Translations under genes and position numbers: made by a program | Origin: an uncultured Candidatus Saccharibacteria bacterium | GTDB taxonomy: Bacteria; Patescibacteriota; Minisyncoccia; Phycocordibacterales; Phycocordibacteraceae | Assembly (NCBI GenBank): GCA_964569655.1 | Contig: CAZMTN010000002.1 | Span: 70,197 to 134,196, forward strand | Length of the DNA stretch: 64,000 nucleotides | Reading direction: 5' to 3' | In this document: positions 33,504-58,429 of the stretch, piece after piece | Layout of the letters: each line of letters starts with the position of its first letter | Position numbering within the stretch: the stretch's first letter is position 1 | The notes under the pieces: model-generated | Database searches by the model: none | Seen by the model: the letters and a program-made list of their open reading frames with translations, nothing else | Told to the model about the DNA's origin: nothing

Positions 33504-33574
33504 TTCCTATGTCTCCTCTGGTTTCAGCTGAAAAAACTATAGCACGTGCAGTCAGATTTTCAATGCTTCAGAAG

Positions 33575-33603: not shown

Positions 33604-33757
33604 CTCATGCTCGGCGGTCATCGGAAACGACACATTAAGTAAACAAAAGGTATGTGAAAGCGTTGGAATAGCGTCTAAACGGGTCAATTCGGGCTTTATA
33701 GTTTATGCCGTGAAATCGCTTCAAGTCTCAGAGAGATTTTTCCGCTATACTAGATAG

Positions 33758-34066: not shown

Positions 34067-34230
34067 AAGAATGGCTCTGGACTCGAGCCAAGGTAAGGCC
34101 TCTCGATTCTCATTGAGTATCTAGTTGCCAGCTGCTGTCATGGAGCAGCACTTTTCTGCGCCAGCCCACGTCCTGAGCGTATTCAGATTAGGCAGCTCGT
34201 CATTTTCCGGGCCTTTGATAAGGTACTGCC

Positions 34231-34845: not shown

Positions 34846-34855
34846 TGGCGAATTG

Positions 34856-34913
34856 GGTTCCCACGTCATACCACAGCCCATAACTTAATAGCGGCTCCTG
34901 TCGTATCGCTTCC
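34856..34913 (+). repeat. Island repeat copy 3 (GGTTCCCACGTCATACCACAGCCCATAAC) followed by a partial fourth copy (ACTTAATAGCGGCTCCTGTCGTATCGC)
   Basis: 25 of 28 positions are identical to copy 1. The trailing ACTTAATAGCGG also matches the sequence that precedes copy 1. Confidence 0.6.
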
Positions 34914-41179: not shown

Positions 41180-41949
41180 GAGCCAAGAAATCGCTCGGGC
41201 AGAATTTCCTCATGCACGCGAAGACCGCGGAGCGCATCGCGGATGGTGCGCTAGTGACGAAAGAGGATGTGGTGCTCGAGATCGGTCCGGGCACCGGCAT
41301 GCTCACGAAGCCCCTCCTTACCCGCGCGAAGAAAGTAATCGCCGTGGAAGCGGATAGGGAACTAGCGGAGCAGCTTAAGGAAACATTCGCGAGCGAGATC
41401 TCTGAGGGCTCGTTCGAGCTCATCGAGTCAGATATCCGCGCATTCGACCCGGCCTCCATCGGGGTCCCGTACAAGCTCGTCGCGAACATCCCGTACTACA
41501 TCACGGGCGAGATCATCCGCACCTTCCTCACCACTGCTCGCAAGCCGTCCTCTATGACGCTCCTCGTGCAGAAGGAAGTCGCGGAGCGCATCTCCCGAGC
41601 GGAGAAGGGAAGCCTGCTCTCCATCGCGGTTAAGACGTACGGCACGCCGAAGTACCTCTTCACCGTGCCCCGCGGCGCCTTCGTGCCGGCCCCGAACGTC
41701 GATTCCGCGGTCATTTCCATAACCGATATCCATGCGCCATTCGAGACAAGTACTGAAGAAGAGCGATTTTTCGAGCTGCTGCGCGCCGGATTCGCGCACA
41801 AGCGCAAGTTCCTCGCGAATAACCTGTCTGAAACGGCCGAGAAAGGCGCGATCGAGGCCGCATTCGCCGCCGAGAACGTGTCGCCGAAGGCTCGAGCGGA
41901 AGATCTCGACCTCGAAACCTGGAAAAAGCTCGCAAAACGGCTCGGATAG
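41176..41949 (+). CDS. rsmA: 16S rRNA (adenine1518/1519-N6)-dimethyltransferase RsmA/KsgA
   Basis: SLGQNFL signature and SAM motif LEIGPGTG. The ATGA overlap with the pcrA stop suggests translational coupling. Confidence 0.85.
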   Translation: MRAKKSLGQNFLMHAKTAERIADGALVTKEDVVLEIGPGTGMLTKPLLTRAKKVIAVEADRELAEQLKETFASEISEGSFELIESDIRAFDPASIGVPYKLVANIPYYITGEIIRTFLTTARKPSSMTLLVQKEVAERISRAEKGSLLSIAVKTYGTPKYLFTVPRGAFVPAPNVDSAVISITDIHAPFETSTEEERFFELLRAGFAHKRKFLANNLSETAEKGAIEAAFAAENVSPKARAEDLDLETWKKLAKRLG

Positions 41950-42028
41950 GCTTCATGTAATGCACACACGGGGCGTACGAGCCTCCGTTTGGTGATACTA
42001 TTCATAGGTATCCTTCACATTCTCTACC

Positions 42029-43027
42029 GTGGCCTTACTCGATTCACGTAATCTCGTCATCTCAGGCTCGATCGTCATCGCGATGATCCTGGTTTTGGGC
42101 GCCTACATCGCTTCGGGACGCCATGTGCCGGTGCTCACCGTGAGCGCGGAATCCACCGAAGAAATCCTTAAGGAATACGCAGCGAAGGACTCCGACAAGG
42201 ACGGCCTCCCGGACTGGCAGGAAGCGCTCTACGGCACCGATCCCGAGAATCCGAATTCGGTCCGTGCGGATATCACAGACAGCCAGGCGGTTGCCCAAGG
42301 TCTCGCCACCCCTCGCTACGCGGGGCAGAGCATCCCGATCACCGCAGGAGGGGAGCCGATTTCGGTACCAGGCATCGTGGCGGCTCCTGATTCGCTCACC
42401 GAGCAGTTCTCGCGTCTTTTCTTCGAGAACTACCTCAGCACCCGCGGCAGCGAGGTGCCGTCCGCACAGGCGAGCCAGCAGTTCGTCACGAGCGCCGTGA
42501 GCGAGCTCGTCGCATCGCGCTCGCAGGTGAACGCGTACTCCGCGGAGGACATCAAGGTCAGCGGTTCGGGCGCAGGCGCGCTCCGCGCGTACGCGGCCGT
42601 TGCCGAGTCCACTATCCTGAGCCGCAATCCGGGACACGATGCCGGTACCGTAGCGTACTTCCAGGACGCGGTGCAGAAGGACGACAAAGAGGCACTCAAG
42701 AAAGTAGGGGAGATTGGCAGGGCAGTGGAGAGCGCGGCCAAAGCACTTACCCTGATCAACGTGCCGAGCGAAGCTGCTGCCGCTCACCTCACGTTCGTGA
42801 ACGCGATGGCCGGGCTCGCGAAGAGCACGCTCGACCTCGCCGCGTTCGACACCGATCCGCTGCGCGCCATGGTCGGCCTCGGGCTTTACGAGCAGAGCGT
42901 CCAGGAATACGGCGCGGCATACAAGGCCGTGTACCAGGTATTCGCGAGCGCGGGCGTGACGCTCAGTGCCGGGGAGCCGGGCTATGAGTTTTATACGTTC
43001 GCCCAATCAGCCGCTAACCTCTATTAG
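42029..43027 (+). CDS. Hypothetical membrane-anchored protein (N-terminal transmembrane segment), first gene of the T4SS-like cluster
   Basis: Transmembrane helix IVIAMILVLGAYIA. No motif. Confidence 0.5.
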   Translation: MALLDSRNLVISGSIVIAMILVLGAYIASGRHVPVLTVSAESTEEILKEYAAKDSDKDGLPDWQEALYGTDPENPNSVRADITDSQAVAQGLATPRYAGQSIPITAGGEPISVPGIVAAPDSLTEQFSRLFFENYLSTRGSEVPSAQASQQFVTSAVSELVASRSQVNAYSAEDIKVSGSGAGALRAYAAVAESTILSRNPGHDAGTVAYFQDAVQKDDKEALKKVGEIGRAVESAAKALTLINVPSEAAAAHLTFVNAMAGLAKSTLDLAAFDTDPLRAMVGLGLYEQSVQEYGAAYKAVYQVFASAGVTLSAGEPGYEFYTFAQSAANLY

Positions 43028-43029
43028 CC

Positions 43030-44499
43030 ATGAACCGCACCATCTCATTCGCGTTCGGCCTCCTGCTCATCCTCCCGATAGCGGTAACTTCCGTTCCGCG
43101 CCCGGCGCACGCCTTCATGGACGGCGGCGGATCCCTCATGCTCGTCGCGAAGGAGTACGGCCTCGACTCGGTCGCGTGGATCGTCGCGAAGCAGGCGGTG
43201 AGCGCCATGACGAGGAGCACGGTCAACTGGATCAATTCCGGATTCAACGGCTCTCCGGCGTTCATCACCAACCTCGACGAATTCCTTATGCACGTCGGCG
43301 ACGTAGCAGCGATGGCGTACATCGACGAGCTCCAGAACAATCCGTCTCTCAAATCACCCTTCCAGAACAAGATCGCTCAGACGGCGTACACGGGCTATCT
43401 CCTCGCGACGTCCGAGGACGCCTATGTGCGTCTCAATGGCTACGACCTCAACCAGGTAACCTACTACGACGAGGAATTCCTCAGAGGGAATTTCGGTCGC
43501 GGCGGATGGGACGCATGGTTCGCAGCCGCGATGCGTCCGCAGAATAATCCGTATGGCGCGCAGATGCTCGCCATGAACGGCCTCGAGGTGGCGGTGAGCG
43601 GATCGAGGAACAACCGTTTGATCGAGCTTAACTGGGGCGGGGGATTCATGTCGTGGTGCGATAACGTAGGCGCGGGCGAGACGTACGAGGACGCGGAAGG
43701 CGGAGCCATGATCGACAACAACGGCAATTTCGTCGGCACGCCGGGCTCTCCGGAGCTCGATGCGGAGGCGCAGGTGGCGGCAGGAAATTTCGTAAACACC
43801 AGCCAGCCGAATCCGGCGGAGACCTGCACGGACCAGCACGGCAACAAGGGGCAGATCAAGACGCCGGGTTCGGTGATCCGCGACCAGATCAACCATACCC
43901 TCGGCCTTTCGGGAGACCAGCTCGTCTCCGCGGACGAGCTCAATGAGATCGTCTCGGCGCTCATGTCGCAGCTCACGCAGCAGGTGATGGGCGCAGGCGG
44001 CCTCTCGGGAGTGTCGCGTTCCTCGAGCGGCGGACGATCGTATCTCGACAGGGCGGCGTCTGATCCTGCTGGAGCGCAGGCAGCAGCGGGCACCCTGGAT
44101 ACCGCCATCATCTCGTACCGGACGCAGCTCCAGGGATATGAGAGGGATTGGGAGACGCTCAATACGCAGATCGAGGCCGCATCATGCTCTAACGATCCGG
44201 TTGTGACCGGCGCGAGAGCGGATTACGCCCGCGCCCAGGCACAGATCTCGACTGCCTTCACCAGGCTCGACGAGGTTCAGAACCTCATGAGCTCCGTGAA
44301 TTCAGGGGCAGGGGGCGGGGGCGAAGCGATCGGCGTGATTGAGAGCGCAAGCAGCAAATTCCAGAGCATCATCTCGTCCCCGCCGACCGCAGCGGAGATG
44401 GCGAGGATCAACGCAGAGGCCGTTGATAATTCCAGCAGCGAGAACGGCCAGGAAACGCTCTACGTGAAGCTCGAGGAAGAGGCGCGAAGATGCAGGTAA
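43030..44499 (+). CDS. Hypothetical secreted protein (signal peptide, 489 aa)
   Basis: Signal peptide with an AHA cleavage site. Translationally tight with its neighbours. Confidence 0.5.
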   Translation: MNRTISFAFGLLLILPIAVTSVPRPAHAFMDGGGSLMLVAKEYGLDSVAWIVAKQAVSAMTRSTVNWINSGFNGSPAFITNLDEFLMHVGDVAAMAYIDELQNNPSLKSPFQNKIAQTAYTGYLLATSEDAYVRLNGYDLNQVTYYDEEFLRGNFGRGGWDAWFAAAMRPQNNPYGAQMLAMNGLEVAVSGSRNNRLIELNWGGGFMSWCDNVGAGETYEDAEGGAMIDNNGNFVGTPGSPELDAEAQVAAGNFVNTSQPNPAETCTDQHGNKGQIKTPGSVIRDQINHTLGLSGDQLVSADELNEIVSALMSQLTQQVMGAGGLSGVSRSSSGGRSYLDRAASDPAGAQAAAGTLDTAIISYRTQLQGYERDWETLNTQIEAASCSNDPVVTGARADYARAQAQISTAFTRLDEVQNLMSSVNSGAGGGGEAIGVIESASSKFQSIISSPPTAAEMARINAEAVDNSSSENGQETLYVKLEEEARRCR

Positions 44500-44505
44500 T
44501 ACGCT

Positions 44506-46737
44506 ATGGGAATCTGGAACACACTACAAACTTTCACTAAGAAGATGATGTCGGACGCCAAAGCGCGCCCGCTGTCGTTCCTTATCTTCGTAGCGGTGTT
44601 CCTTCTTTCCCCAGCAATCGCATTCGCTCAGGTAAAAACTGGCGATGCCGCGGCGTCAAACCCTTTCTCGGTCTTGGGCGACTGGACCGTAGGTGCCGCG
44701 TTCGCCGGCATCAGCTACTCCATCCTCACATTCTCGAACTTCATCCTTTACATGGCGGGGTCTCTTTTCAATTGGGTAGTGGAGTACACCGTCTTCGGGT
44801 TTGCGAACATCATCGGCGGGACCGTGGGACTCATCGCGGCATGGAGCGTACTCAGGGATATCGCTAATATCGCGCTCCTTTTCGGATTCATCTTCATCGG
44901 CGTAGCGACCATATTGGACATCCACGGATACGAGGCGAAGAAGACGCTCCCGAGACTTATCATCTTCGCCGTGCTCCTGAACTTCAGCCTCCTCGCATCG
45001 CAGATGGTCATAGATACGTCGAACATCTTTAGCGCGGCCATCTATCAGCAGGCAGGCGGGCAGGAGTGCAACGCTATAGATAAGAAAGCGTGCGCGAATA
45101 ACGGCATCTCGGGGAAGATAGCGCAGATGTCGGGGATTACTACGCTGTTCGATTTCAGCCAGAAGAGCGCTGAAACCGACGCTTCTTTCACGCGGTGGGG
45201 CATTACCTATCTCATGATGTCCGTGTTCGTAACCATCACGGCCGTGGTGCTCCTTGCAGGAGCCATCATGCTCATCATCCGAGCGGTGGTCCTGATCTTC
45301 CTCATGGTCTTGTCTCCGATAGGCTTCGCGGGCCTCGCTATCCCGCCCCTCGAGCAGCATGCGCGCACCTGGTGGAGCAAGCTCATATCCCAATCCTTCT
45401 TCGCGCCGGTTTTCCTGCTGCTGATCCTGGTAAGCATCAAGATAGCAGAGGGGATCCAGACGTCGCTCAAGGCACCGACGCTCGTGCATGCGCTCACAAG
45501 CGGGGACGTGAACACGGTCCAGGCCGTCGTCCTGTTCGCGATCTTCATCGGGTTCATGATCATGTCCTTGGTCGCGGCGCAGCGCATCGGCGCTATCGGC
45601 GCTGGATTCGCCGCGAACGCTTCGTCGGCACTCGTATACGGTTCGATGGCGTACGGCGCCAATACCGTGGTCGGCGGCGGCTCATACCTCGCTCGCAAGA
45701 CCATAGAGAGAAAGAGCAAGGGCGGGAAAGTAGCGCGCGCGGTGGTGAACTATGGATTCCGTCCGCTCGAGAACGCGAATCTCGACATGCGCAGGATGCC
45801 GGGCATGGCGGCTGCGCTCGGCGTGGGCGGAATCACGACCGGCGCGAAACCGGTAGAGCATGGCACGTTTAAGGACGTCAAGCATATATATGATGGCTTC
45901 AGGAACATGGAGACCAATAAGAGGCTGAACGCGCAGTATGACGACGAAAGGGATGCGCTTAGGCTCGAGAAGGAGGCGCATGGCCCGGGAGCGCTTTCTG
46001 CGGCCAGCCTCAAATACCTGAGCGGCCTGAGTGCGAAGGAGCTCGAAGCGCTCCACGGCATCCAGGAGGGCCTCGAGAAGCTCGCATACAACCTCTCACC
46101 TGAGCAATTCGAGGCGCTCATGAAGAGCGAGAAGCTCAGCGACATGCAGAAGGGCAAGCTGAAGGAAGGCCGCTTCGCGAAGCTCACTGGCCACGCGCAG
46201 GACGCTGCGAACGCTGCGAATCCGACAGCGAAGGCGACTGAGGTCGCGAAGGTGAAAGCTGAGCTTAAGAAGCTGAACAAGAGCGACCTCGAGAATCTCC
46301 CTGCGGCCCTCCTTGAGAAGCAAGGGGCGGGCGAGATCGTGCTCGCAGAGCTCTCCGAGAAGCAGCGCGAGGACCTCGCGGGGAGCAAGAAGCGAACTGG
46401 CGGGGAGCGGGATAACGTGCGCACCAGCAGCCCGATCGGGCTATTGGAAGAGAAGTTCAATAACGCTCCTACTCTGTCAGCTGGGGCTCGAGCGGTACGA
46501 AGTGAGATCGGCAACCTGACGCCTGCCCAGGTGGGCCAGCTGGATTCGAAGATCCTGATCCAGCCGGAAGTTTCTGAGGCGCTGACGCAACCGATCCTTA
46601 CGGAACTCCAGGAGAAGAAGAAGCTGAAGGTCAAAGAGATGAAGGCTATCGGCGACAATATTCGCAAGAGTTCCGCTGTCGCGCCGAAGCTTAAGGAGTT
46701 CGTAACTACCGGCCCAGGCGCAGCTATGTGGTCATAA
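44506..46737 (+). CDS. TrbL/VirB6-like polytopic membrane protein with a long charged coiled-coil C-terminal extension (743 aa)
   Basis: Signal-like N-terminus, 6 or more transmembrane helices in the first ~400 aa, and a K/E-rich C-terminus. It sits next to VirB4-like and VirB3-like genes. Confidence 0.55.
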   Translation: MGIWNTLQTFTKKMMSDAKARPLSFLIFVAVFLLSPAIAFAQVKTGDAAASNPFSVLGDWTVGAAFAGISYSILTFSNFILYMAGSLFNWVVEYTVFGFANIIGGTVGLIAAWSVLRDIANIALLFGFIFIGVATILDIHGYEAKKTLPRLIIFAVLLNFSLLASQMVIDTSNIFSAAIYQQAGGQECNAIDKKACANNGISGKIAQMSGITTLFDFSQKSAETDASFTRWGITYLMMSVFVTITAVVLLAGAIMLIIRAVVLIFLMVLSPIGFAGLAIPPLEQHARTWWSKLISQSFFAPVFLLLILVSIKIAEGIQTSLKAPTLVHALTSGDVNTVQAVVLFAIFIGFMIMSLVAAQRIGAIGAGFAANASSALVYGSMAYGANTVVGGGSYLARKTIERKSKGGKVARAVVNYGFRPLENANLDMRRMPGMAAALGVGGITTGAKPVEHGTFKDVKHIYDGFRNMETNKRLNAQYDDERDALRLEKEAHGPGALSAASLKYLSGLSAKELEALHGIQEGLEKLAYNLSPEQFEALMKSEKLSDMQKGKLKEGRFAKLTGHAQDAANAANPTAKATEVAKVKAELKKLNKSDLENLPAALLEKQGAGEIVLAELSEKQREDLAGSKKRTGGERDNVRTSSPIGLLEEKFNNAPTLSAGARAVRSEIGNLTPAQVGQLDSKILIQPEVSEALTQPILTELQEKKKLKVKEMKAIGDNIRKSSAVAPKLKEFVTTGPGAAMWS

Positions 46738-46740
46738 GGT

Positions 46741-47346
46741 ATGAATAACGAGATTCCTACAGAGCGCGTCCTAGAGGCATACGGAGCCGCACCGAGCTTC
46801 GTTCGCGAAGCGTTCAATGCCGAGAAGACCACCACATTCCTCGTATATCTCCGCGAGAAGTACGGGTTCCATATTGATACCGCAGGCATGCTAGGGAAGC
46901 AGGTGGGCTACCTCTTGCTCGGCCTCGTAAACCCTTCCGATTTCTACCGCGCCATCGTCGCGGCCGGCATGAGCGAGGATATCGCTAAGAAGGTGACTGA
47001 GGAGATCAACCAGAACATCTTCATGCCGCTCAATCAGGGGCTGCGCGCAAGCAACATGGAGGTAGTCCGCACTCCGCCTCCGCCTCCGCCGGCTGTTGCC
47101 CGGCCTATGCCAGCTTCCGAGCCTCCGATGGTGGTGCGTACGTTGCCTCCCCTCCAGGCGGCTCCGCCTATACCGGTGAAAGCTCCTCAGCCTGCTTCCG
47201 TACCGCCTCCGCCTCCAACGCCGCGTCCCGTTCCTCCAGTACCCGCGAATCTTCCCGGGGTGGCACCGGAGCCTAAGACGGCCATTCCGGCTCCTCGTCC
47301 GGCAAGCAAGTACGGCGCAGATCCATACCGAGAGAGCTTTGATTAG
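46741..47346 (+). CDS. Hypothetical protein with a proline-rich C-terminal half
   Basis: PPPPPPAVARP...PPPPTPRPVPPVP. Confidence 0.45.
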   Translation: MNNEIPTERVLEAYGAAPSFVREAFNAEKTTTFLVYLREKYGFHIDTAGMLGKQVGYLLLGLVNPSDFYRAIVAAGMSEDIAKKVTEEINQNIFMPLNQGLRASNMEVVRTPPPPPPAVARPMPASEPPMVVRTLPPLQAAPPIPVKAPQPASVPPPPPTPRPVPPVPANLPGVAPEPKTAIPAPRPASKYGADPYRESFD

Positions 47347-47386
47347 CCTTGTCTTGCGCGAGGGCCTTGGTACCATTCATATATAT

Positions 47387-47761
47387 ATGAGCGAATCGCC
47401 CCCGAGCAGAGAGAGCGTCTCACGGCCAGAAAGAGGAGTAGAGGGCACGCCATACACGGCACCTGTAGACGTGGCTTCGGACTCCGATAGCTCAGAACTC
47501 AGCCAAGTGCGCGCGAATCTCGAGAAGCATAAGGAGCAGCCAGCTTCGGCGAGCGGCAGTCACGGTCATGGCCACGAGAGTCCCGTGACGAAGGTCGGCA
47601 TGGTCGGATACGGCATCGTCGCCACCATGTTCTATCTCTTCTGGCAGGAGCTCAAGAAGACCAAGGGCCTGTTCGAAGGAGGCGGCGGGGGAGGCCACGG
47701 CGGAGGCGGGCACGCGAAGAAAGAAGACCACGGACACGGCGGAGGCGGGCACGGGCACTAG
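47387..47761 (+). CDS. Hypothetical small membrane protein with a His/Gly-rich C-terminal tail
   Basis: Transmembrane helix VGMVGYGIVATMFYLFW; tail GGGGGGHGGGGHAKKEDHGHGGGGHGH. Confidence 0.4.
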   Translation: MSESPPSRESVSRPERGVEGTPYTAPVDVASDSDSSELSQVRANLEKHKEQPASASGSHGHGHESPVTKVGMVGYGIVATMFYLFWQELKKTKGLFEGGGGGGHGGGGHAKKEDHGHGGGGHGH

Positions 47762-47804
47762 TTATTACCTTTTTCAATACGCACTCCTGCTATACTTATA
47801 GCTA

Positions 47805-48215
47805 ATGGAGTATCAGGTTCCTCAATTCATCGAGGTAGAGGACAAGATCTTTGGCCCATTCACGCTGAAGCAATTCATTTATATCGCCGGCGGCGCGGGC
47901 GTCACCGCCATCGCGTTCATCTACCTCCCGATGATCTTCGCGCTCCTCGTAGCGCTTCCGGTCGCGGGACTCGCCGGCGCGCTTGCGTTCTACCGGATGA
48001 ACAACAAGCCGTTCATCAACGTCATGGAGGCGTGGTTCACCTACTTCACCGGCGGGAAGCTCTATATCTGGAAGAAGGGGGACAAGGTGGCGGAAGCGAC
48101 GCCGACGGTCCAGCCCCAGGTAGAGGAGGCGCGGGCGAAGCTGAAGCTCACGCCGAACAAGCTGCATGACATCGCGTGGTCGCTCGACGTGAAGAATAGC
48201 GAGCCACAACCGTAA
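47805..48215 (+). CDS. PrgI/VirB3-like small membrane protein of type IV secretion systems
   Basis: The N-terminus QFIEVEDKIFGPFTLKQFIYIAGGAG, followed by two transmembrane helices, matches the PrgI-family pattern. It lies directly upstream of the VirB4-like genes. Confidence 0.5.
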   Translation: MEYQVPQFIEVEDKIFGPFTLKQFIYIAGGAGVTAIAFIYLPMIFALLVALPVAGLAGALAFYRMNNKPFINVMEAWFTYFTGGKLYIWKKGDKVAEATPTVQPQVEEARAKLKLTPNKLHDIAWSLDVKNSEPQP

Positions 48216-48216
48216 T

Positions 48217-48846
48217 ATGGCTACTGCAAGCGCAACCCAGTCATTCGTGCCGGTAAAGGAAGTACGCAACGGCGTCATCATCCTCAAGAACGGGGAATAC
48301 CGGGGCATCCTCATGTGCTCCTCGCTCAACTTCGCGCTCAAGTCGGAGACGGAGCAGCGCGCCATCATCGGCGGCTTCCAGAATTTCCTCAATACCCTCG
48401 ACTTCTCCGTGCAGATCAACGTGCATTCTCGCAAGATGGATCTGCGCCCGTACCTCGAACTCCTTTCCGCGCGCACGGACGCGCAACAGAGCGAGCTCAT
48501 GAAGATCCAGGTACGGGAATACATGCAGTTCGTCCGCAGCTTCTCGGACAACGCGAACATCATGACCAAGATGTTCTACATCGTCGTGCCGTACACGCCG
48601 GCGGTAGCGTCCCAGGTGAAAAGCGCGCTCCCGTTCTTCCAGAAGGAGACTTCGGCGACGCAAGGAACCACGAGCTCCTTCGACGAATACCGCGTCCAGC
48701 TCGAGCAGCGAATGTCTTTGGTCGCGAGCGGGCTCTCTTCTACGGGGCTCCGCGCGGTGATGCTCGGCACCGAGGAGGTGATCGAGCTCCTGTACCGCTC
48801 GTTCAACATCGGCGAGCTCGAGAGCCCGATCAGGCTCACCCAATAA
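48217..48846 (+). CDS. Hypothetical 209-aa protein in frame with the downstream VirB4-like ATPase; possible detached VirB4 N-terminal domain
   Basis: A single TAA at 48844-48846 separates it from the ATG at 48850 in the same reading frame. Confidence 0.5.
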   Translation: MATASATQSFVPVKEVRNGVIILKNGEYRGILMCSSLNFALKSETEQRAIIGGFQNFLNTLDFSVQINVHSRKMDLRPYLELLSARTDAQQSELMKIQVREYMQFVRSFSDNANIMTKMFYIVVPYTPAVASQVKSALPFFQKETSATQGTTSSFDEYRVQLEQRMSLVASGLSSTGLRAVMLGTEEVIELLYRSFNIGELESPIRLTQ

Positions 48847-48849
48847 CCT

Positions 48850-50664
48850 ATGTCCTTGCTTGATTTCATAAACCGAAAAAAGAAAGAGGAAGTACAGGTC
48901 ACTCCTGTGCTCCCCAAGGACATCTACGCGCAAGGTACCCTCGACCTCGCGGACACGATTGCGCCGGCGGCGCTCAAGGTTGGCGCTCGCGAGATCGAGC
49001 TCGGCCAGAAGTTCGCTCGCTCGTTCTATACGATTTCATACCCCCGCTTCCTCGCGGACAGCTGGTTCACACCGATCATCAATCTCGACAAGGTGCTCGA
49101 CATCAGCATCTTCATCCACCCGATTGAGACCGGCATGGTGCTCCGCCAGTTCCAGAAGAAGGTGGCCGAGGTACAGAGCCAGATCTCGGAGAGGGAACAG
49201 AAGGGCTTGGTCCGCGACCCGGTCCTCGATACGGCATACCAGGACCTCGAGGGGCTCCGGGACAACCTCCAGCAGGCGCAGGAGAAGCTCTTCGAAGTAG
49301 GCCTCTACCTCACGCTCTACGCGGACTCCAAGGAGGAGCTCGACAAGACGGAAGGGGAGGTGCGCGGCATCCTCGACGCCAAGCTCGTGTACACCAAGCC
49401 GGCCGTCTTCCAGCAGGAGCAGGGCTTCCGCTCCACGCTCCCGCTCGAGCTCGACGAGCTCGCGGTGCGCTCGAAGCTGAATTCCTCTCCGCTCTCGTCC
49501 ATGTTCCCGTTCGTCTCCTTCGACCTTACGAGCGACCGAGGCATCCTCTTCGGCATCAACCGCCATAACTCATCTCTCATCCTCTTCGACCGGTTCTCGC
49601 TCGAGAACTACAACTCGGTGGTCTTCGCGAAGTCCGGTTCCGGAAAGTCCTACGCGATGAAGCTCGAGATCCTACGCTCCCTCATGTTCGATACGGACGT
49701 GATCGTCATCGACCCGGAACGCGAATACGAATACCTCGCCGAAGCGACGGGCGGGCGCATGTTCAATATCTCGCTCTCGAGCGAGCACCATATCAACCCG
49801 TTCGACCTGCCTGCGGTCCGCGAGGACGAGGAGCCGGCCGATATCCTGCGCAGCAACATCATCAACCTCGTCGGGCTCTTCCGTATCATGCTCGGCGGCC
49901 TCACGCCCGAAGAGGATGCCATCGTCGACCGCGCCATCACGGAGACCTATGCCCTCAAGGACATCACGGGGGAGAGGGACTTCACCGGCGTCCAGCCGCC
50001 GCTCCTCTCGGACTTCGAGGCGGTACTCGCCGGCATGGAGGGAAGCCAGTCCCTGGTCCAGCGCCTTTCTAAATACACCCGCGGCACCTGGTCCGGCTTC
50101 ATGAACCAGCCGACCAATATCGACATCAACAAGCAGTTCATCGTCTTCTCCGTCCGCGATATGGAGGATGAATTGAAGCCGGTGGCGATGTACATCATCT
50201 CCCACTTCATCTGGAACGCGGTGCGCCGCGAACTGAAGAAGCGCCTCCTCGTGATCGATGAGGCATGGTGGATGATGAAGTCTGAGGACACGGCGTCTTT
50301 CCTGTACTCCCTCGCGAAGCGCGGACGCAAGTACTATCTTGGCGTTGCGACCGTCACCCAGGACGTGGAGGACTTCCTCGCATCCCCGTACGGCAGGCCG
50401 ATCCTCACGAACTCCTCCATCCAGATGCTCCTCAAGCAATCCCCGACGACCATCGACGTCCTCCAGAAAACGTTCAACCTCACGGAAGAGGAGAAATACC
50501 TTCTCCTCGAATCAGGAGTAGGGGAGGGCCTCTTCTTTGCTGGCCTCAAGCACGTCGCCATCAAGGTCGTCGCTTCCTACACGGAGGATCAGATCATCAC
50601 GTCGGATCCGTCCCAGCTCCTCCAGATCAAGCGCGAGAAGAGCCGGCTGGATGGCGCCGCCTAA
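48850..50664 (+). CDS. VirB4/TrbE/CagE-family type IV secretion ATPase (C-terminal ATPase portion, 604 aa)
   Basis: Walker A AKSGSGKSY, Walker B LLVIDEAWWM, and C-terminal motifs TQDVEDF. Confidence 0.85.
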   Translation: MSLLDFINRKKKEEVQVTPVLPKDIYAQGTLDLADTIAPAALKVGAREIELGQKFARSFYTISYPRFLADSWFTPIINLDKVLDISIFIHPIETGMVLRQFQKKVAEVQSQISEREQKGLVRDPVLDTAYQDLEGLRDNLQQAQEKLFEVGLYLTLYADSKEELDKTEGEVRGILDAKLVYTKPAVFQQEQGFRSTLPLELDELAVRSKLNSSPLSSMFPFVSFDLTSDRGILFGINRHNSSLILFDRFSLENYNSVVFAKSGSGKSYAMKLEILRSLMFDTDVIVIDPEREYEYLAEATGGRMFNISLSSEHHINPFDLPAVREDEEPADILRSNIINLVGLFRIMLGGLTPEEDAIVDRAITETYALKDITGERDFTGVQPPLLSDFEAVLAGMEGSQSLVQRLSKYTRGTWSGFMNQPTNIDINKQFIVFSVRDMEDELKPVAMYIISHFIWNAVRRELKKRLLVIDEAWWMMKSEDTASFLYSLAKRGRKYYLGVATVTQDVEDFLASPYGRPILTNSSIQMLLKQSPTTIDVLQKTFNLTEEEKYLLLESGVGEGLFFAGLKHVAIKVVASYTEDQIITSDPSQLLQIKREKSRLDGAA

Positions 50665-50670
50665 TCCTCT

Positions 50671-51132
50671 ATGGAACAGCAGGCAAAGGACAACGGCGCT
50701 TCGCAAGAGAAAAAGAAGCGCATCGGAAACGTTACTGCCGTCCTGATGATCTTCACGGCGGTCTTGTTCGACCTCGCGCAGGGGCTATTGTTCTTCCTGA
50801 ATCCTATCCCCGTCCTCGGGTTCATGCTCGACCTGGTAGCATCTTATTTCATCACGTTCGTCTCCGGAGCCGTATTCCTCCTCTGGTTCATGCTGTGTCG
50901 CGTGAACTACTTCGATTCCCGGTCCGCGAAGAAGTTCTTCATCGTGCTCATTGCCGGTATCGTCGAGCTCACGCCCTTCATAGACACGCTGCCCGGCATA
51001 AGCCTGGGCGTCATCGCCCTCGTCGTCCAGGTGCGTCTCGAGGACCGGAGCTCGAAGAAGGCCGTGCAGAAGCTGGCAGGACGCAAGCTCCGTCCGATGC
51101 GCGGCATTAATCCGCAGGCCCACCGTCCGTAG
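50671..51132 (+). CDS. Hypothetical small membrane protein (3-4 transmembrane segments)
   Basis: Hydrophobic helices; sits in the T4SS-like cluster. Confidence 0.45.
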   Translation: MEQQAKDNGASQEKKKRIGNVTAVLMIFTAVLFDLAQGLLFFLNPIPVLGFMLDLVASYFITFVSGAVFLLWFMLCRVNYFDSRSAKKFFIVLIAGIVELTPFIDTLPGISLGVIALVVQVRLEDRSSKKAVQKLAGRKLRPMRGINPQAHRP

Positions 51133-51159
51133 CAGGGAACAGGGCGGTATACTACAGTC

Positions 51160-52146
51160 ATGCGAAAAGCCCTGGCCTTCCTCATCATCCTTGGAGCCAC
51201 CGCCATCCTTCCCTCCTTTGCCCACGCGCAGAACCTGGGAGCTGAGCCGCTCACCATCTCGGTCAGCCCTGAATTCCCTGAGCCGTATCAGACGGTGACG
51301 GTGACGCCACGCAGTACTCTCCTGAACCTCGCGGCGAGCGCGGTAACGGTCTCCGTCAACGGGAAGGTAGTTAGCACCGGCTCTGGAGGAGCATCGACTT
51401 CGTTCCAGATGGGAGGTCCCGGCCAGACGGCTGTCGTGACGGTATCTGCGACCGGTCCGGACGGTTCTTACCAGGCATCCGTGACGCTCCGCCCTTCGAA
51501 TATATCCCTTATCGTGGAGCCGATGTCCGTGACGCACCCCCTTTATGAGGGAGGTAGCCTCCTCGCTGCCGAGGGACGCGTCCGCCTCATTGCGCTCGCC
51601 GATATGCGTTCTAGCGCCGGAACGCCAATAGCAGCCGCAAATCTCGTATATAACTGGCAGCTCGGCAACCAGCAGCTTGCCGCGCAATCCGGTATCGGCA
51701 GGTCGGTACTCACCGCCACCGGACCCCTCCTGTACCGCGATGCGACCGTCACAGTGACTGTTTCCACGCCGGACGGCAGCGCTTCAGGGCAATCGAGGAC
51801 GGTTCTCGAGCCGGTAGAGCAGCAGGTCCTCGTATACCGCAACAATCCGCTCCTCGGGCCGGACTTCAGCAAGACAATCACCGGCGAGACGAGCCTTTCG
51901 GAAGGGGAGGACTCTTTCCGCGCGGTCCCGTATTTCTTCCCGACCATGCCAAACTTCTCCTGGAGCGTAAATGGCGCGCCGAGCGGATCCGAGCAAGTGA
52001 TCACTGTCCGCTCTAACGGGGACGGCGCGGGCAGCGCCCTCTTGTCTGTGGAGGCTTCACAGCCAGGCACCTATCTGGCCGCGAGCAATTCGTTCACGGT
52101 CAGGTTCGGTGAGGACACCGGCTTATTCGATTTCTTTGGCTTATGA
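51160..52146 (+). CDS. Hypothetical secreted protein (signal peptide; Ig-like/beta-rich)
   Basis: Signal peptide ending AHAQ, then a Ser/Thr/Val-rich beta-like sequence. Confidence 0.5.
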   Translation: MRKALAFLIILGATAILPSFAHAQNLGAEPLTISVSPEFPEPYQTVTVTPRSTLLNLAASAVTVSVNGKVVSTGSGGASTSFQMGGPGQTAVVTVSATGPDGSYQASVTLRPSNISLIVEPMSVTHPLYEGGSLLAAEGRVRLIALADMRSSAGTPIAAANLVYNWQLGNQQLAAQSGIGRSVLTATGPLLYRDATVTVTVSTPDGSASGQSRTVLEPVEQQVLVYRNNPLLGPDFSKTITGETSLSEGEDSFRAVPYFFPTMPNFSWSVNGAPSGSEQVITVRSNGDGAGSALLSVEASQPGTYLAASNSFTVRFGEDTGLFDFFGL

Positions 52147-53174
52147 TGAAAGGCATGATTCCGCACGTCGCCGCCCTTACCGTGCTCTTGTTGCCGAGCG
52201 TCGCATTCGGGCAGGAGAACCTCGTCACGCTGACCAATATCCCCGGCCTCACCCAGGATATGGGCGGCGCTTCGAAGCTTCCCGAGTTCCTCAACGGCCT
52301 CTACAACTTCTGTATCGGCATCGCGGTGGTGCTCGCCGTGATCCAGCTCATCCGCGCCGGCATCGAGTACATGACGGCAGGGGGGAGCATCGGCAGCACC
52401 GAACACGCGAAGCACCTCATCACCACCTCAATCCTCGGCCTGGTGCTCGTCCTCTCTCCTTATATAGTTTTCAGCATCGTGAACCCGAGGATCCTGGACC
52501 TCGAGATCAGCGCCGACAAGCTCGAGACGACGCTGCCGACCGGGACACCGGGTGCAGCCGGGAACAATGGCGCAGAAACTACTACCGAGACGAAGGACGG
52601 CTGTAAAATTTCCACAAACGACACGACGCAGGCCAAGACGGTGACGTGCACGGGAAAGACTCCGCAGGAAGCAACGTCAAAGGCGGCGAACACCGTGAGA
52701 GGGGCGTGCGGAGCGGGAGCCCATGTCCAGGTAGGTGAAGAAGGCGATGCAAAGGGCACGAATCCGTCCAAGGATGCCGTCGGCGCGAACGGCCAGACGG
52801 TCAAAGGCACCAATACTCAGTTCGAAGCGACGGGATACTGCAGCCCGAAGAAAGGCGTGTCGCTGGTCTATTTCGGGGTGAGCACCCGCCCTTCGGTCAC
52901 GGAGGGGATAGCGATCGGGGGAGACGATCAGTACTATGCCGCTATTATCTACGGGGCAGAAGAGAATGAGAAGTGGGCCTCCGCATGCGGCAAAAAACTG
53001 CGCACTGACAGGGGAATGATATTCGATGTCAACCAGCCGAAGAACATGATCCAAGGCGGATTCCAGTGCCCGATGCAAGATGAGAAGTTCAAGCAGATGG
53101 TCCAAGGCCAGATACAGGGCAAGGGGACGGTCGGCGTCTGGTGCGCGAACGTACAGACGTACTGCGCCCAGTAA
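52143..53174 (+). CDS. VirB2/TrbC-pilin-like N-terminal domain fused to a Cys-containing extracellular domain
   Basis: A signal peptide is followed by two hydrophobic helices (LYNFCIGIAVVLAVIQLI, LITTSILGLVLVLSPYIVFSIV), the typical T4SS pilin topology. The C-terminus has 8 Cys. ATGA overlap with the upstream gene. Confidence 0.45.
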   Translation: MMKGMIPHVAALTVLLLPSVAFGQENLVTLTNIPGLTQDMGGASKLPEFLNGLYNFCIGIAVVLAVIQLIRAGIEYMTAGGSIGSTEHAKHLITTSILGLVLVLSPYIVFSIVNPRILDLEISADKLETTLPTGTPGAAGNNGAETTTETKDGCKISTNDTTQAKTVTCTGKTPQEATSKAANTVRGACGAGAHVQVGEEGDAKGTNPSKDAVGANGQTVKGTNTQFEATGYCSPKKGVSLVYFGVSTRPSVTEGIAIGGDDQYYAAIIYGAEENEKWASACGKKLRTDRGMIFDVNQPKNMIQGGFQCPMQDEKFKQMVQGQIQGKGTVGVWCANVQTYCAQ

Positions 53175-53177
53175 CGT

Positions 53178-54425
53178 ATGCAGAAAGCCCTTACCATCGC
53201 CGCAATCGTCATCGTGATGCTCGGCCTCGCGGTCGGCATCTACTTCCTGTTCTTCAGCACGGACTCGGGTCTTGTCACCGAGGACGGGCTCCCGGGAAAC
53301 AACCCCTTCGGCGGAGCGGGCGGGGAAGTGACCCCTGACGTGCTCCCGGACACGGTCACCGATACCCCTGAAGACAGCGCGGAGCAGATCGCGCCGCGCC
53401 TCGTGAAGATCGCCGCGAAGCCGGTAGCCAGGGGAGCGGTCGCGATCATCGCCACCACGACGCAGACGGTCTCCCTCGCGACCACCACAGCCACGTCTAC
53501 GCCCGAGTACCTCACCACGGTCGAGGTGCGCTACATAGACCGCGCCACGGGCAACATGTACAGCTACGCGGCTCTGGACGGCGAGACCACCCGCCTCACC
53601 AACCGCACCATCCCGGGCATCCAGGAAGCCTCATGGCTCCCGAATGGCTCCCTCGCGTATGCGCGCTACATCTCCGCGGATACGGGCAGCGAGCACATAG
53701 AGACTTACGCGCTCCCGGCGGACGGCAGCGACGGCCGCTTCCTTGCGCGCGACCTCGGCACCATCATCCCGCGCACGGACGGCAGCGTCTTCACCTTCAC
53801 CCCGAGCTCGAGCGGCTCGGTAGGCACGGTCGAGGACCCGGACGGCTCCGGCGCCGCCACGCTCTTCTCCTCCGCACTCTCTTCTATCGTACTCAAAGGC
53901 GACACGAACTTTTCCGCGCACACGAAGCCCTCTATCGAGCTCCCGGGCTACGCGTTCGTCGTAAACGGAGAGACCGGAGCATTCACCAAAGTCGTGGGGC
54001 CTATGGCAGGGCTCTCCGCTCTCATCGATCCCGCAGGGAAGCAGGTCCTCTACAGCGGCTTCACCAATGGCGCGCTGCGCCTCGCGCTCGTGAACGCGTC
54101 CACGCGCGAAGTCATCGCGCTCCCGGTGCAGACGCTCGCGGAGAAATGCGTGTGGACCCGGGACAGCCTCTCCGCGTACTGCGCGGTGCCGGTCTCGTTC
54201 CCGATCGCGAACCTTCCCGATGCCTGGTACCAGGGCACGGTGTCCTTCACGGACCGCATCTGGCGCATCGACCTTACCGCCCGCGTCGCGACGCTGGTCG
54301 CGGACCTGCCGGACCTCATCGAGGACGAGCAGATAGACGCGGTGGCGCTCACCCTCGACCCGAACGAAGGCACCCTCGTCTTCCAGAACAAGCGGGACGG
54401 CTCCCTCTGGGCCTACTCCCTTTAG
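53178..54425 (+). CDS. Hypothetical membrane-anchored protein with a beta-propeller-like (TolB/WD40-like) ectodomain
   Basis: N-terminal transmembrane segment, then repetitive beta-strand-like blocks. Confidence 0.45.
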   Translation: MQKALTIAAIVIVMLGLAVGIYFLFFSTDSGLVTEDGLPGNNPFGGAGGEVTPDVLPDTVTDTPEDSAEQIAPRLVKIAAKPVARGAVAIIATTTQTVSLATTTATSTPEYLTTVEVRYIDRATGNMYSYAALDGETTRLTNRTIPGIQEASWLPNGSLAYARYISADTGSEHIETYALPADGSDGRFLARDLGTIIPRTDGSVFTFTPSSSGSVGTVEDPDGSGAATLFSSALSSIVLKGDTNFSAHTKPSIELPGYAFVVNGETGAFTKVVGPMAGLSALIDPAGKQVLYSGFTNGALRLALVNASTREVIALPVQTLAEKCVWTRDSLSAYCAVPVSFPIANLPDAWYQGTVSFTDRIWRIDLTARVATLVADLPDLIEDEQIDAVALTLDPNEGTLVFQNKRDGSLWAYSL

Positions 54426-54429
54426 ATAA

Positions 54430-55161
54430 TTAGGCAGCCGCAGCCTTAGGGATGAGCGGCGTTCGTCGTACGAAAAGCTCCTGCACGATGGTGACGATGT
54501 TGGTGGTGATGAAATAGAGCCCGACCGCTCCGGAGAGCTGGTACGCGACGATCGCGATGATGAACGGGATCACGTAGCGCGCCTGCATGGCCATCGCGCG
54601 GCCGAAGTCCTCGGACATGGTGCTCTTCTCGGACTTTGCGGGCGTCGGCATGGAGAAGTATGCCGCCAGGTACTGCGTACCGCCGGCCAGCACCGCGAGC
54701 ACGATGCTCTTCCCGGTGATCGGGAAGATGCCGAGGAAGTCGGTGGAGATCACCGCCGGGATGGAGACGAAGGAGTAGAGGATATCCATGTTCACGCTCG
54801 GGAGCGCCTCGCCCATGAACACCCAGTAGAGGGCGAAGAGGACAGGCAGCTGGATGAGGAGCGTGAGGAAGCTCGCGAACGGGTTGATCTGGTACTTCTT
54901 GTAGAGAGCGAACATCTCCTTCGCCTGCTTCTCCTTATTATCCTTATGCTTCTCGCGGATCTCGCGCAGCTCCGGCTCCACTACCTTCATTGCGCGCTGG
55001 GTGCGCACCGCTGACAGAGAGAGCGGCAGGATGATGACCTTCACGGCCACCGTGACCGCGATGACGGCCAATCCCACGTCTCCGCCCGGCACCACCCCCA
55101 CGAAGAAGATGAGGAGGTTGTAGATCGGGTTGTAGAGGTACGTGTAGAAGAGGGAGACCAT
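54430..55161 (-). CDS. yidC: Membrane protein insertase YidC (short form)
   Basis: AVIAVTVAVKVIILPLS and QINPFASFLTLLIQLPVLFALY are characteristic segments, with 5 transmembrane helices. It lies in the rpmH-rnpA-yidC syntenic block. Confidence 0.85.
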   Translation of the reverse strand: MVSLFYTYLYNPIYNLLIFFVGVVPGGDVGLAVIAVTVAVKVIILPLSLSAVRTQRAMKVVEPELREIREKHKDNKEKQAKEMFALYKKYQINPFASFLTLLIQLPVLFALYWVFMGEALPSVNMDILYSFVSIPAVISTDFLGIFPITGKSIVLAVLAGGTQYLAAYFSMPTPAKSEKSTMSEDFGRAMAMQARYVIPFIIAIVAYQLSGAVGLYFITTNIVTIVQELFVRRTPLIPKAAAA

Positions 55162-55184: not shown

Positions 55185-55490
55185 TTAGCCGAGCGCGTGA
55201 AGGAGCTTCTCCAGTTCCTGCCTGAGGACAGGGAAGGGGAGCTTCGGGCTTCCGGCCTTAGCAAAGACTACGAGCGCAATATGGGGGTAGTCGTGGCGCG
55301 CGAGCACGCTCATGATGCGACGCTTCAGAAGATGCCGGTCCACGGCCCTGGCCGCCACCTTCTTGGACACCACCACGGCCATACCGGTCCCGGTAGACCA
55401 GGAAAGGCTCAGATGGGGACTCTGAGCCTTGCGCGCCCTCTGGAGAGCGCTGAAACCTGCCCTAGACAGCCTGCGCCGCCTGGGAAGCAT
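55185..55490 (-). CDS. rnpA: Ribonuclease P protein component
   Basis: LPRRRRLSRAGFSALQRARK and VVVSKKVAARAVDRHLLKRRI are basic RnpA motifs. It sits downstream of rpmH. Confidence 0.75.
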   Translation of the reverse strand: MLPRRRRLSRAGFSALQRARKAQSPHLSLSWSTGTGMAVVVSKKVAARAVDRHLLKRRIMSVLARHDYPHIALVVFAKAGSPKLPFPVLRQELEKLLHALG

Positions 55491-55494
55491 AGGA

Positions 55495-55638
55495 TTAGAC
55501 GACCGAGAGCTTGGCTCGGCCCTTGCGGCGGCGCTTAGCAATGATCTTCTTGCCGGAAGCGGTCTTCGTGCGGGCACGGAAGCCGTGGGTGCGGGCGCGC
55601 TTTCGCTTCTTCGGCTGGTAGGTTCGCTTCGTGGACAT
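55495..55638 (-). CDS. rpmH: 50S ribosomal protein L34
   Basis: [46 protein letters not shown]. Confidence 0.9.
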
Positions 55639-57328: not shown

Positions 57329-58429
57329 ATGGTCATCACTGTTGAGAAGAATATCTTCAGGGAAGCTGTGCATACCGCATCCCGATTCGCTGAGCGGAAG
57401 TCAGCGACTCTTCCGGCATTGTCTGGCATCGCCATCATCGCGGGAGACGACGGCATCAAGCTCCGCGCCACCAATCTCGAGACCGGCATCGACCTCAAGG
57501 TGGACGGCTCTATCCGGAGCCAGGGCGTGGTCGTAGTCTCCGCCGCACTCCTGCGCGACATCACAAGCTCCTTCTCCGGATCCGGCTCCATTACGCTCGA
57601 GCACGCGGGGGATACGGCGGTCATAACCTCAGGCATGGGAAAGAGCACCTTGAAGACGCTCCCTTCCGAGGATTTCCCCGTCATCCCGCTCCCGCAGTCT
57701 TCCGAGACTACGCTCTCCATCGCGGGGAATCTCCTCTCCGCGCTTCTCAATAGTGTCGTCGCCTGCGCATCAACATCCTCCGTACGCCCAGAGCTCGCGA
57801 GCGTGCTCCTCGCAGGTGAGAGCGGGACCTTGAAGGCAGTCGCCTCGGACTCCTTCCGTCTCGCGGAGAAGAAGGTGACGCTCGAGAAGGCGGGGAAGCC
57901 GTTCTCTATCCTCATCCCGGCAAAGAACGCGGCAGATATCCTCCAGACGATTCCGGAGAGCGAACTCACCCTCACCATGGACGAGCACCAGTGCGCATTC
58001 TCCTGGAGCGGCGGCGTGGTCACGACCCGCCTTGTAGCCGCAAGCTATCCGGACTACACCCAGATCATCCCGAAGACCTTCGCTGCGGAGGGTACCGTGC
58101 TCAAGAAGGATTTCGAATCGGTACTGAAGCGTACCGCGGTATTCTCTGACACCTTCCAGAAGGTCCGCATCGCTTTCGACGTGAAAGCGAAGCAGATCGT
58201 CTTCGCCTCCCGCAACGCGGACGTCGGCGAGACCTCAGAAACCATCCCCGGAGCGCTGTCAGGGGAGTCTCTGGAGCTTTCCTTCAATCACCGGTACCTC
58301 GCCGCGCCACTGCCCCTAATTTCGGCAGAGAACGTCACCATCTCGCTCTCCGGCATAGGGAGGCCGCTCGTCATGCGCGGCACGGGGGACGCGTCCTTCC
58401 TCTACCTCGTGATGCCGATGAACCAATAG
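57329..58429 (+). CDS. dnaN: DNA polymerase III beta sliding clamp
   Basis: Three-domain clamp pattern with a conserved C-terminal MPM motif (LVMPMN). Confidence 0.9.
   Translation: MVITVEKNIFREAVHTASRFAERKSATLPALSGIAIIAGDDGIKLRATNLETGIDLKVDGSIRSQGVVVVSAALLRDITSSFSGSGSITLEHAGDTAVITSGMGKSTLKTLPSEDFPVIPLPQSSETTLSIAGNLLSALLNSVVACASTSSVRPELASVLLAGESGTLKAVASDSFRLAEKKVTLEKAGKPFSILIPAKNAADILQTIPESELTLTMDEHQCAFSWSGGVVTTRLVAASYPDYTQIIPKTFAAEGTVLKKDFESVLKRTAVFSDTFQKVRIAFDVKAKQIVFASRNADVGETSETIPGALSGESLELSFNHRYLAAPLPLISAENVTISLSGIGRPLVMRGTGDASFLYLVMPMNQ

Follow-up and report, generated by a model that had tools for sequence, protein, structure and literature searches.

A putative chromosomal type IV secretion system beside dnaA in an uncultured member of the Patescibacteria

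Does a cluster of type IV secretion system (T4SS) genes in an uncultured Candidatus Saccharibacteria genome encode a conjugation apparatus, or a machine with another role? The cluster, twelve genes numbered here g1 to g12, lies in a 64,000-nt stretch of contig CAZMTN010000002.1 (assembly GCA_964569655.1, positions 70,197 to 134,196), referred to below as the window. It likely represents a chromosomal, vertically inherited T4SS of the Patescibacteria, similar to those of Paceibacteria and Kaiserbacteria, whose ancestry lies in conjugation systems of the MPF_FATA type but whose role is no longer conjugative. The Patescibacteria, obligate epibionts, account for a large part of bacterial diversity, and nearly all of these ultra-small bacteria encode such an origin-adjacent T4SS, which they apparently require for life on host cells.

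Systems of this kind are already known. In Southlakia epibionticum, transposon sequencing identified a T4SS cluster and its pilins as essential for epibiotic growth, and this T4SS was described as similar to Gram-positive conjugative T4SSs, with unusual pilins and without coupling and relaxase proteins (Wang et al., 2023; PMC10633639). A survey of the phylum recovered a monophyletic Patescibacteria VirB4 clade related to MPF_FATA, found TrsD, PrgI/VirB3, VirB6 and VirB2-like pilins to be widespread and genes for the type IV coupling protein (T4CP) rarely near virB4, and placed the T4SS of Paceibacteria near dnaA, dnaN, rnpA and ksgA (Quinonero-Coronel et al., 2025; PMC12102498). A review from 2025 lists the Patescibacteria systems as a new T4SS subgroup (PMC12857230). 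The description of such loci as poorly characterised in the original prediction, which was made from the nucleotide sequence, is therefore outdated, since essentiality was published in 2023 and composition, phylogeny and dnaA proximity in 2025. Within this published framework (2023 to 2025), the window is a textbook, clean and complete Paceibacteria instance.

For comparison, the VirB4 sequence was queried against one genome per GTDB species, which yielded relatives in more than 555 species; the loci around the best 80 were used. The proposed VirB4-family ATPase (g8) was borne out by matches to Pfam P-loop_TraG (3e-26) and AAA_10 and to NCBIfam conju_CD1110 (377 bits, cutoff 325), with intact Walker A (AKSGSGKS, residue 260) and Walker B (LLVIDEAW) motifs. 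The nearest solved structure is the C-terminal domain of Thermoanaerobacter VirB4 (4ag5, 1.6e-44), and with 65 bits against the Bacteroides TraG-type model (cutoff 262) g8 is not of that type. The preceding g7 matches NCBIfam VirB4_plasma (8e-9, profile positions 102 to 233), conju_CD1110 (1.8e-6, 2 to 165) and, weakly, TrsD (1e-3). As g8 covers positions 182 to 733 of conju_CD1110 and 292 to 893 of VirB4_plasma, the two proteins are complementary without overlap, as expected for a putative split VirB4 with g7 as its detached N-terminal domain. The protein upstream of VirB4 was named TrsD in the 2025 survey (PMC12102498). Using tblastn, g7 was found in 79 of the 80 loci (47 to 71% identity) and g6 in 76. 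The latter, predicted as a small membrane protein of PrgI pattern, exceeds the Pfam PrgI gathering score (37.5 bits versus 27; 3.4e-9), and g6, g7 and g8 are separated by 1 to 3 nt.

The translocon also includes an extended VirB6/TrbL-like channel protein (g3), for which the original call likewise held: 6 to 7 hydrophobic segments within residues 1 to 360 precede a 343-aa cytoplasmic tail in which 29% of residues are charged. Its match to Pfam TrbL (4.6e-6) is marginally above the gathering score (27.0 versus 25.9 bits), TrbL is matched by 11 of 47 orthologs, and a weak NCBIfam match to TraJ was found. None of the outer-membrane core families VirB7, VirB9 and VirB10 was detected in the cluster with Pfam or NCBIfam; published work describes such organisms as monoderm. 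Homology thus shows a predicted membrane translocon of extended VirB6, PrgI/VirB3 and VirB4 with a separate N-domain, together with one VirB2-like pilin. The CD1110-type VirB4, PrgI, TrsD and VirB6-like proteins and the absence of VirB7/9/10 are shared with the MPF_FATA systems (CD1110 of Clostridium difficile CTn2, Trs of pGO1 and Prg of pCF10). In contrast to these systems, the cluster lacks a relaxase, a T4CP, a VirB8-like protein (PrgL) and a VirB1-like hydrolase, encodes a VirB2-like pilin, which they do not have, and is not located on a mobile element. The T4SS of the Patescibacteria clade, as in Southlakia (SEML1_0006-0019), shares VirB4, TrsD, PrgI/VirB3, VirB6 and a VirB2-like pilin, has no relaxase or T4CP nearby and is chromosomal.

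The pilin (g11) carries a signal peptide followed by two transmembrane helices, a topology that fits a VirB2-like pilin. Although g11 itself remains below the gathering score of T4SS_pilin (23.7 versus 26.6 bits), this family was matched by 46 of 51 orthologs and TrbC/VirB2 by 19 of 51, which upholds the proposal of a VirB2-topology pilin fused to a Cys-rich ectodomain. The pilin core ends at an I-N-P motif near residue 115 and is followed by a hypervariable extension of 228 aa with 8 cysteines. Alignments to orthologs break off at a median of about residue 130, and among 5.8 billion protein clusters a single full-length homolog (52% identity) was found. The boundary motif could be located in 35 sequences, including that of the window; their extensions have a median of 164 aa and a Cys content of 5.1%, versus 0.34% in a comparison set of the other cluster proteins and six housekeeping proteins from its flanks. 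Cysteine counts are even for 34 of these 35 extensions, which points to disulfide-bonded extracellular domains. The window and 66 of 68 loci have a single copy of the pilin gene, whereas Southlakia encodes an array of six short divergent pilins (Wang et al., 2023; PMC10633639) and multi-gene pilin arrays were reported for Saccharimonadia and Microgenomatia (Quinonero-Coronel et al., 2025; PMC12102498).

The genomic position of the cluster bears on the question of mobility. As originally proposed, its twelve genes are co-oriented and tightly packed, with exact coordinates (Table 1) and spacings of -4 to 43 nt; the gap from ksgA to g1 is 79 nt. Third-position GC of the twelve open reading frames (ORFs) is 0.65 to 0.87, and GC content is about 0.60 in the cluster and its flanks (0.585 to 0.62 along the cluster). 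The stretch between uvrD and g1 is not empty but occupied by ksgA; two minus-strand ORFs (41124-41489 and 41496-42005) were discarded as shadow ORFs of this gene. The order uvrD-ksgA-g1-g2-VirB6-g4-(g5)-PrgI-TrsD-VirB4-g9-g10-pilin-g12-yidC-rnpA-dnaA-dnaN is kept in more than 30 species, and in more than 40 species the cluster holds a fixed slot between ksgA and yidC/dnaA in identical order. The same dnaA/dnaN/rnpA/ksgA neighbourhood was described for the Paceibacteria T4SS (PMC12102498). The best 80 VirB4 relatives (74 to 89% identity) all derive from metagenome-assembled genomes (MAGs) of uncultured organisms, and every record among them with a taxon name belongs to the Patescibacteria (Paceibacteria, Kaiserbacteria, Parcubacteria or bins labelled 'Saccharibacteria'). 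With Paceibacteria and Kaiserbacteria MAGs as best VirB4 matches (75 to 89% identity), assignment to the candidate phyla radiation (CPR) was also correct.

Table 1. Coordinates of the T4SS cluster and its flanking genes in the window.
Feature	Position	Strand	Length	Description	Basis
uvrD	39212-41179			upstream flank	
ksgA	41176-41949			KsgA/RsmA; fills the ~850-nt stretch between uvrD and g1	
T4SS cluster	42029-54425	+		12 genes, g1 to g12	ORFs at these coordinates
g1	42029-43027	+	332 aa	anchor (residues 9-27), TSP3-type Ca-binding repeat (~51-87) and unknown-fold ectodomain	
g2	43030-44499	+	489 aa	secreted; conserved, mostly helical N-domain and C-terminal helical bundle	
g3	44506-46737	+	743 aa	extended VirB6/TrbL-like polytopic channel protein	Pfam TrbL, hydropathy
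g4	46741-47346	+	201 aa	cytoplasmic, no transmembrane segment	
g5	47387-47761	+	~124 aa	low-complexity, Gly/His-rich tail; ORF opens at 47339	
g6	47805-48215	+	136 aa	PrgI/VirB3-like small membrane protein	Pfam PrgI
g7	48217-48846	+	209 aa	TrsD-like	NCBIfam VirB4_plasma, conju_CD1110, TrsD
g8	48850-50664	+	604 aa	VirB4-family ATPase, monoderm MPF_FATA/CD1110 type	Pfam, NCBIfam, PDB
g9	50671-51132	+	153 aa	small polytopic membrane protein, ~4 transmembrane segments	hydropathy
g10	51160-52146	+	328 aa	secreted; three tandem Ig-like beta-sandwich domains	
g11	52143-53174	+	343 aa	signal peptide, VirB2-like two-helix pilin domain and ectodomain	T4SS_pilin/TrbC in orthologs
g12	53178-54425	+	415 aa	N-terminal membrane anchor and probable TolB/PD40-like beta-propeller; two invariant cysteines	
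yidC	54430-55161	-		directly 3' of the cluster	
rnpA	55185-55577	-		downstream flank	
dnaA	55736-57082	+		downstream flank	
dnaN	57329-58429	+		downstream flank	

VirB4 is more strongly conserved than DnaA: identities to the window range from 74 to 89% for VirB4 and from 51 to 85% for DnaA, VirB4 being higher in 55 of 55 loci (median difference 20 points), a comparison that is slightly biased, although not by 20 points, by selecting loci on VirB4 similarity. Judged from these sequence comparisons, such conservation bears the hallmark of a core function that is inherited vertically and very strongly constrained. No Pfam family of coupling proteins, relaxases or integrases was detected in any ORF of at least 240 aa in the window, in which PilB, UvrD, VirB4 and DnaA are the only P-loop proteins of this size, and Rfam and tRNA scans of all 64 kb returned no hit. 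This agrees with the predicted lack of VirD4 and relaxase, neither of which adjoins the cluster. The missing T4CP, relaxase, integrase and tRNA genes, the uniform GC content and the fixed position all argue for a vertically inherited core machine rather than an integrative and conjugative element (ICE), in line with the original prediction of an apparatus other than a conjugative element. An ordinary conjugation apparatus or decaying ICE with its T4CP and relaxase genes outside the window might be suspected, as VirB4 exceeds the cutoff of a conjugative NCBIfam family and VirD4 homologs are encoded elsewhere in many Patescibacteria genomes (PMC12102498). This is very improbable, however, given the identical ksgA-yidC/dnaA slot in so many species, a VirB4 more conserved than DnaA at uniform GC, and a window devoid of integrase genes (in the ORF size range above) and tRNA genes. 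In the survey, only 103 Patescibacteria genomes encoded relaxases, rarely near virB4, and epibiotic growth of Southlakia did not require its t4cp homolog (PMC12102498).

The cumulative GC skew is lowest near 58 kb, and dnaA is flanked by DnaA boxes close to consensus (55657, 57096 and 57146). The total of such boxes in the whole window is not significant (7 versus 4.3 expected); their clustering at dnaA and the GC skew are suggestive of an origin there. From these two signals and the adjoining dnaA and dnaN genes, the cluster appears to abut the chromosomal origin. The sole perfect DnaA-box consensus of the window (TTATCCACA, 24014-24022), probably fortuitous, is flanked by a TrmB/HTH regulator gene and an unannotated ORF of 243 aa at a distance of 32 kb from dnaA. 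Should dnaA/dnaN mark the origin, the plus-strand operon to its left is transcribed toward the origin and thus head-on to the replication fork, while yidC and rnpA are co-directional with it; gene orientations are the same in all related loci. This head-on arrangement is relevant to the published proposal that proximity to the origin raises expression. A promoter and terminator consensus scan of 41 to 56 kb returned sites no more commonly than in shuffled sequence, and transcription-unit boundaries are therefore drawn from gene spacing.

Gene content was compared in 43 full-length loci with hidden Markov models (HMMs). PrgI-TrsD-VirB4, g10 and g12 are encoded in 43 of 43 and the pilin in 42, and the g1-g2-VirB6-g4 block in 32 to 34. 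A clade of nine loci (L020-L036) has the PrgI block directly after a TIM-PGK-RecJ-ComEC-M50 region, without an adjacent g1-g2-VirB6-g4 block. Since the PrgI block stands without an adjoining upstream block in this clade, the system consists of two separable modules. These loci also lend some weight to the alternative that the cluster is not one machine at all, the T4SS consisting of PrgI-TrsD-VirB4, VirB6 and pilin and the other seven genes encoding unrelated envelope functions, as do the poor conservation of g5 and g9 and a synteny that reaches equally to uvrD, ksgA, yidC and dnaA. This alternative is nevertheless rather improbable, as gaps of 1 to 6 nt and overlaps suggest translational coupling, g10 and g12 accompany VirB4 in every full-length locus, and some g2 relatives carry a motif of a T4SS pilus-associated family.

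Four of these remaining proteins (g1, g2, g10 and g12) carry a signal peptide or N-terminal anchor according to hydropathy, in agreement with the number of such proteins originally proposed. The g1 protein matches Pfam TSP3_bac (0.0028), the sole match of its ortholog profile among PDB sequences is the Ca-binding repeat of a biofilm surface protein, and it is present in 33 of the 43 full-length loci. The g2 protein is a member of an extensive family (5,991 representatives at E<=1e-3), in which 11 of 65 homologs have a short Pfam DUF4141 motif directly behind the signal peptide. This match spans only about 40 residues and exceeds the gathering score in one member; g2 of the window lacks the segment and has no DUF4141 match even at E 0.1. 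Proteins with DUF4141 are encoded next to traJ (VirB6-like) in operons of Bacteroides conjugative transposons, just as g2 is located directly upstream of VirB6-like g3 with its weak TraJ match. We take these DUF4141 proteins to be equivalent to TraI of CTnDOT. In this MPF_B system TraE is VirB2-like, TraJ VirB6-like and TraI VirB5-like, the latter having been reported as homologous to VirB5 (PMC4027160). As the motif is short and missing from g2 itself, g2 is a candidate VirB5/TraI-like pilus-associated protein, a lead rather than a case of membership.

The g4 protein comprises a conserved N-domain of about 100 aa, a proline-rich linker and a C-terminal D-P-Y-(R)-E motif (alignment of 30 orthologs), and its gene follows that of VirB6 in most loci examined. 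No match was found in Pfam, NCBIfam or, by profile search, the PDB. In loci L001-L072 every motif residue is invariant except R, which is nearly so; the motif lies 3 to 5 residues before the stop, and linker length is very variable. The motif looks like a short docking peptide. For g9, neither Pfam nor NCBIfam returned a family match; it is fast-evolving and detectable by tblastn in 14 of 80 loci. At the C-terminal end of g10 there is a conserved hydrophobic motif (consensus G-I-F-G-L, FFGL in the window; low model confidence), which could serve as a sorting or interaction signal. The g12 ortholog profile matched 12 TolB chains in the PDB (best E 1.6e-4), and as Pfam PD40 is found in just 2 of 63 family members, the propeller fold is tentative.

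The fifth gene exists on the plus strand as proposed, although its start is probably ATG 47387 rather than TTG 47339. This start (MSESPP...) is most likely because g5-like proteins with MSE..P starts and Gly/His tails occupy the same slot in loci L010 and L031. A single short segment of the protein (residues ~86-100) is hydrophobic but does not reach the threshold applied to hydropathy, and tblastn of the related loci returned no match. The slot holds unrelated genes in other loci, and g5 is confined to some lineages. In L042 (8595-8804), L043 (7842-8213) and L044 (8513-8890), a small protein resembling the four-helix-bundle '23S rRNA intervening-sequence' type is encoded between g4 and PrgI instead. 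With such different small proteins in the same place, the slot appears to be a variable insertion point in the T4SS operon.

What, then, might a T4SS without a T4CP do? The ComB system of Helicobacter pylori likewise lacks T4CP and relaxase, contains VirB2/3/4/6 homologs and is chromosomal in a genome with ComEC. ComB is a diderm system with VirB7-10. The cluster could accordingly encode an importer, a ComB- or Ced-like device with which a biosynthesis-poor epibiont takes up host DNA, nucleotides or other macromolecules. Its VirB2/3/4/6 set is compatible with this role, ComEC, RecJ and type IV pilus genes are found in the same window at 14 to 30 kb, and import is the hypothesis favoured in PMC12102498. 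VirB4 also has a weak local match to the archaeal DNA-import ATPase CedB (1.9e-9), but over about 70 residues only. In Southlakia, competence requires ComEC and type IV pili, and the T4SS is essential whereas comEC can be dispensed with (PMC10633639, PMC12857230). In the sole Patescibacterium tested, ComEC-dependent uptake is thus separable from T4SS essentiality. By analogy, ComEC-dependent DNA uptake is unlikely as the essential role of the present system, and import in general is a possible but doubtful function.

Alternatively, the system might inject effector proteins by which the host bacterium is manipulated or killed. For Southlakia, Wang et al. (2023; PMC10633639) proposed that the system 'may instead export proteins', T4SS-delivered antibacterial toxins provide a precedent, several secreted proteins are encoded in the operon, and the Bordetella Ptl and Brucella VirB systems also function without T4CP (PMC12857230). 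The latter two, however, are diderm systems with known secreted substrates, whereas no substrate is identifiable here, and no recognisable effector, toxin or immunity gene was found in or beside the cluster with Pfam and NCBIfam. Without coupling protein there is furthermore no known receptor for cytoplasmic substrates, and Sec substrates of a monoderm leave the cell without a T4SS. Effector export thus appears unlikely. As no T4CP is encoded and monoderm Sec substrates are already outside, pilus-mediated attachment or penetration, possibly combined with uptake of host material, is somewhat favoured over classical export of effectors or DNA.

In canonical systems, VirB4 extracts pilin from the membrane. 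In the proposed non-conjugative role, the VirB4/VirB3/VirB6 complex would similarly pull the Sec-inserted pilin from the membrane and polymerise it or display it on the surface, where the outward-facing, hypervariable and disulfide-rich ectodomain would recognise the host-cell surface. The putative Ca-binding g1, DUF4141/TraI-like g2, g10 and propeller-like g12 could serve as tip, adaptor and wall-spanning scaffold, and the machine as a whole would mediate a contact-dependent exchange with the host bacterium needed for growth of the epibiont. As a more specific and clearly speculative model, we hypothesize that the monoderm cell of this Paceibacteria lineage builds a VirB2-type filament 'decorated' by its single major pilin, in which the in-cis, hypervariable and disulfide-knotted ectodomain sets host specificity (as a functional counterpart of the Saccharimonadia pilin arrays), g2 acts as tip or adaptor, g10 and g12 form a scaffold replacing VirB8/9/10, and host macromolecules are taken up without T4CP.

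Several points weigh against a repurposed, host-directed T4SS. The calls for VirB6 (g3) and pilin (g11) are marginal and lean on family-wide support, and neither a VirB8-like component nor an in-operon cell-wall hydrolase was identified in the cluster. For steric reasons, a canonical VirB2 filament may not accommodate a 228-aa ectodomain on each subunit. Essentiality is known from one Saccharibacterium, whose locus layout differs in its pilin array and in essential peptidase and lysozyme genes downstream of virB4, whereas the present operon contains no hydrolase. Because the housekeeping order is equally conserved, adjacency alone is not proof that g1, g4, g5, g9, g10 and g12 belong to the machine; their membership is judged from spacing and co-occurrence in genomes with a generally frozen gene order. 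Finally, the search for T4CP covers 64 kb of the genome, so that a distant T4CP is possible, and the VirD4 homologs of Patescibacteria are usually encoded far from virB4 (PMC12102498).

Elsewhere in the window, type IV pilus/competence genes encode a PilB-like T2SSE ATPase (14295-16046), a PilC-like T2SSF protein (16381-17721) and two small ORFs, with a 598-aa 'choice-of-anchor R' protein beside them (18652-20448). Together with RecJ (25451-27160), ComEC (27595-29061) and a separate metallo-beta-lactamase-fold protein (29677-30522), DNA-uptake genes are encoded 15 to 30 kb from the T4SS. A low-GC patch (32200-34900; 0.48 versus ~0.60 elsewhere), which may be a small acquired island, contains ORFs of 207 aa (32257-32880), 180 aa (32961-33503, minus strand) and 204 aa (34231-34845, methyltransferase-like in sequence) and a membrane ORF of 102 aa (33758-34066). 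The whole segment from this patch to g5 is absent at this position in the L020-L036 clade. A 475-aa protein (34971-36398), proline/alanine-rich over its long N-terminal half and with a single transmembrane segment and a domain at the C-terminus, had no match in Pfam or NCBIfam and is another candidate envelope protein. Furthermore, an M23 peptidase with two LysM domains is encoded on the minus strand (37926-39017) 3 kb upstream of the cluster and is conserved at this position, by tblastn, in two loci only (L005 and L006). Some VirB1 homologs carry additional M23/LysM domains, and it is mainly in Paceibacteria that VirB1 homologs accompany virB4 (PMC12102498). The M23/LysM protein was considered as a VirB1 substitute and rejected, as its gene is not on the cluster strand, is separated from the cluster by uvrD and ksgA, and encodes a protein resembling general cell-division endopeptidases (DipM, NlpD).

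The T4SS of the Patescibacteria is the first shown to be essential for the growth of its bearer. The g1, g2, g4, g10 and g12 proteins are not described in the accessible parts of the Southlakia and phylum-survey accounts. Likewise absent from these parts of the published accounts are the two-frame VirB4, the single pilin with fused ectodomain, the DUF4141/TraI-motif family beside VirB6, the three-Ig protein and a VirB4 conserved above DnaA, which would be modest additions if true. The three-Ig, propeller-like and TraI-motif proteins could be missing wall-spanning or tip parts of these systems. The ectodomain of the single pilin is a candidate determinant of host range; if it has this role, hosts of uncultured CPR lineages could be predicted or matched with its help.

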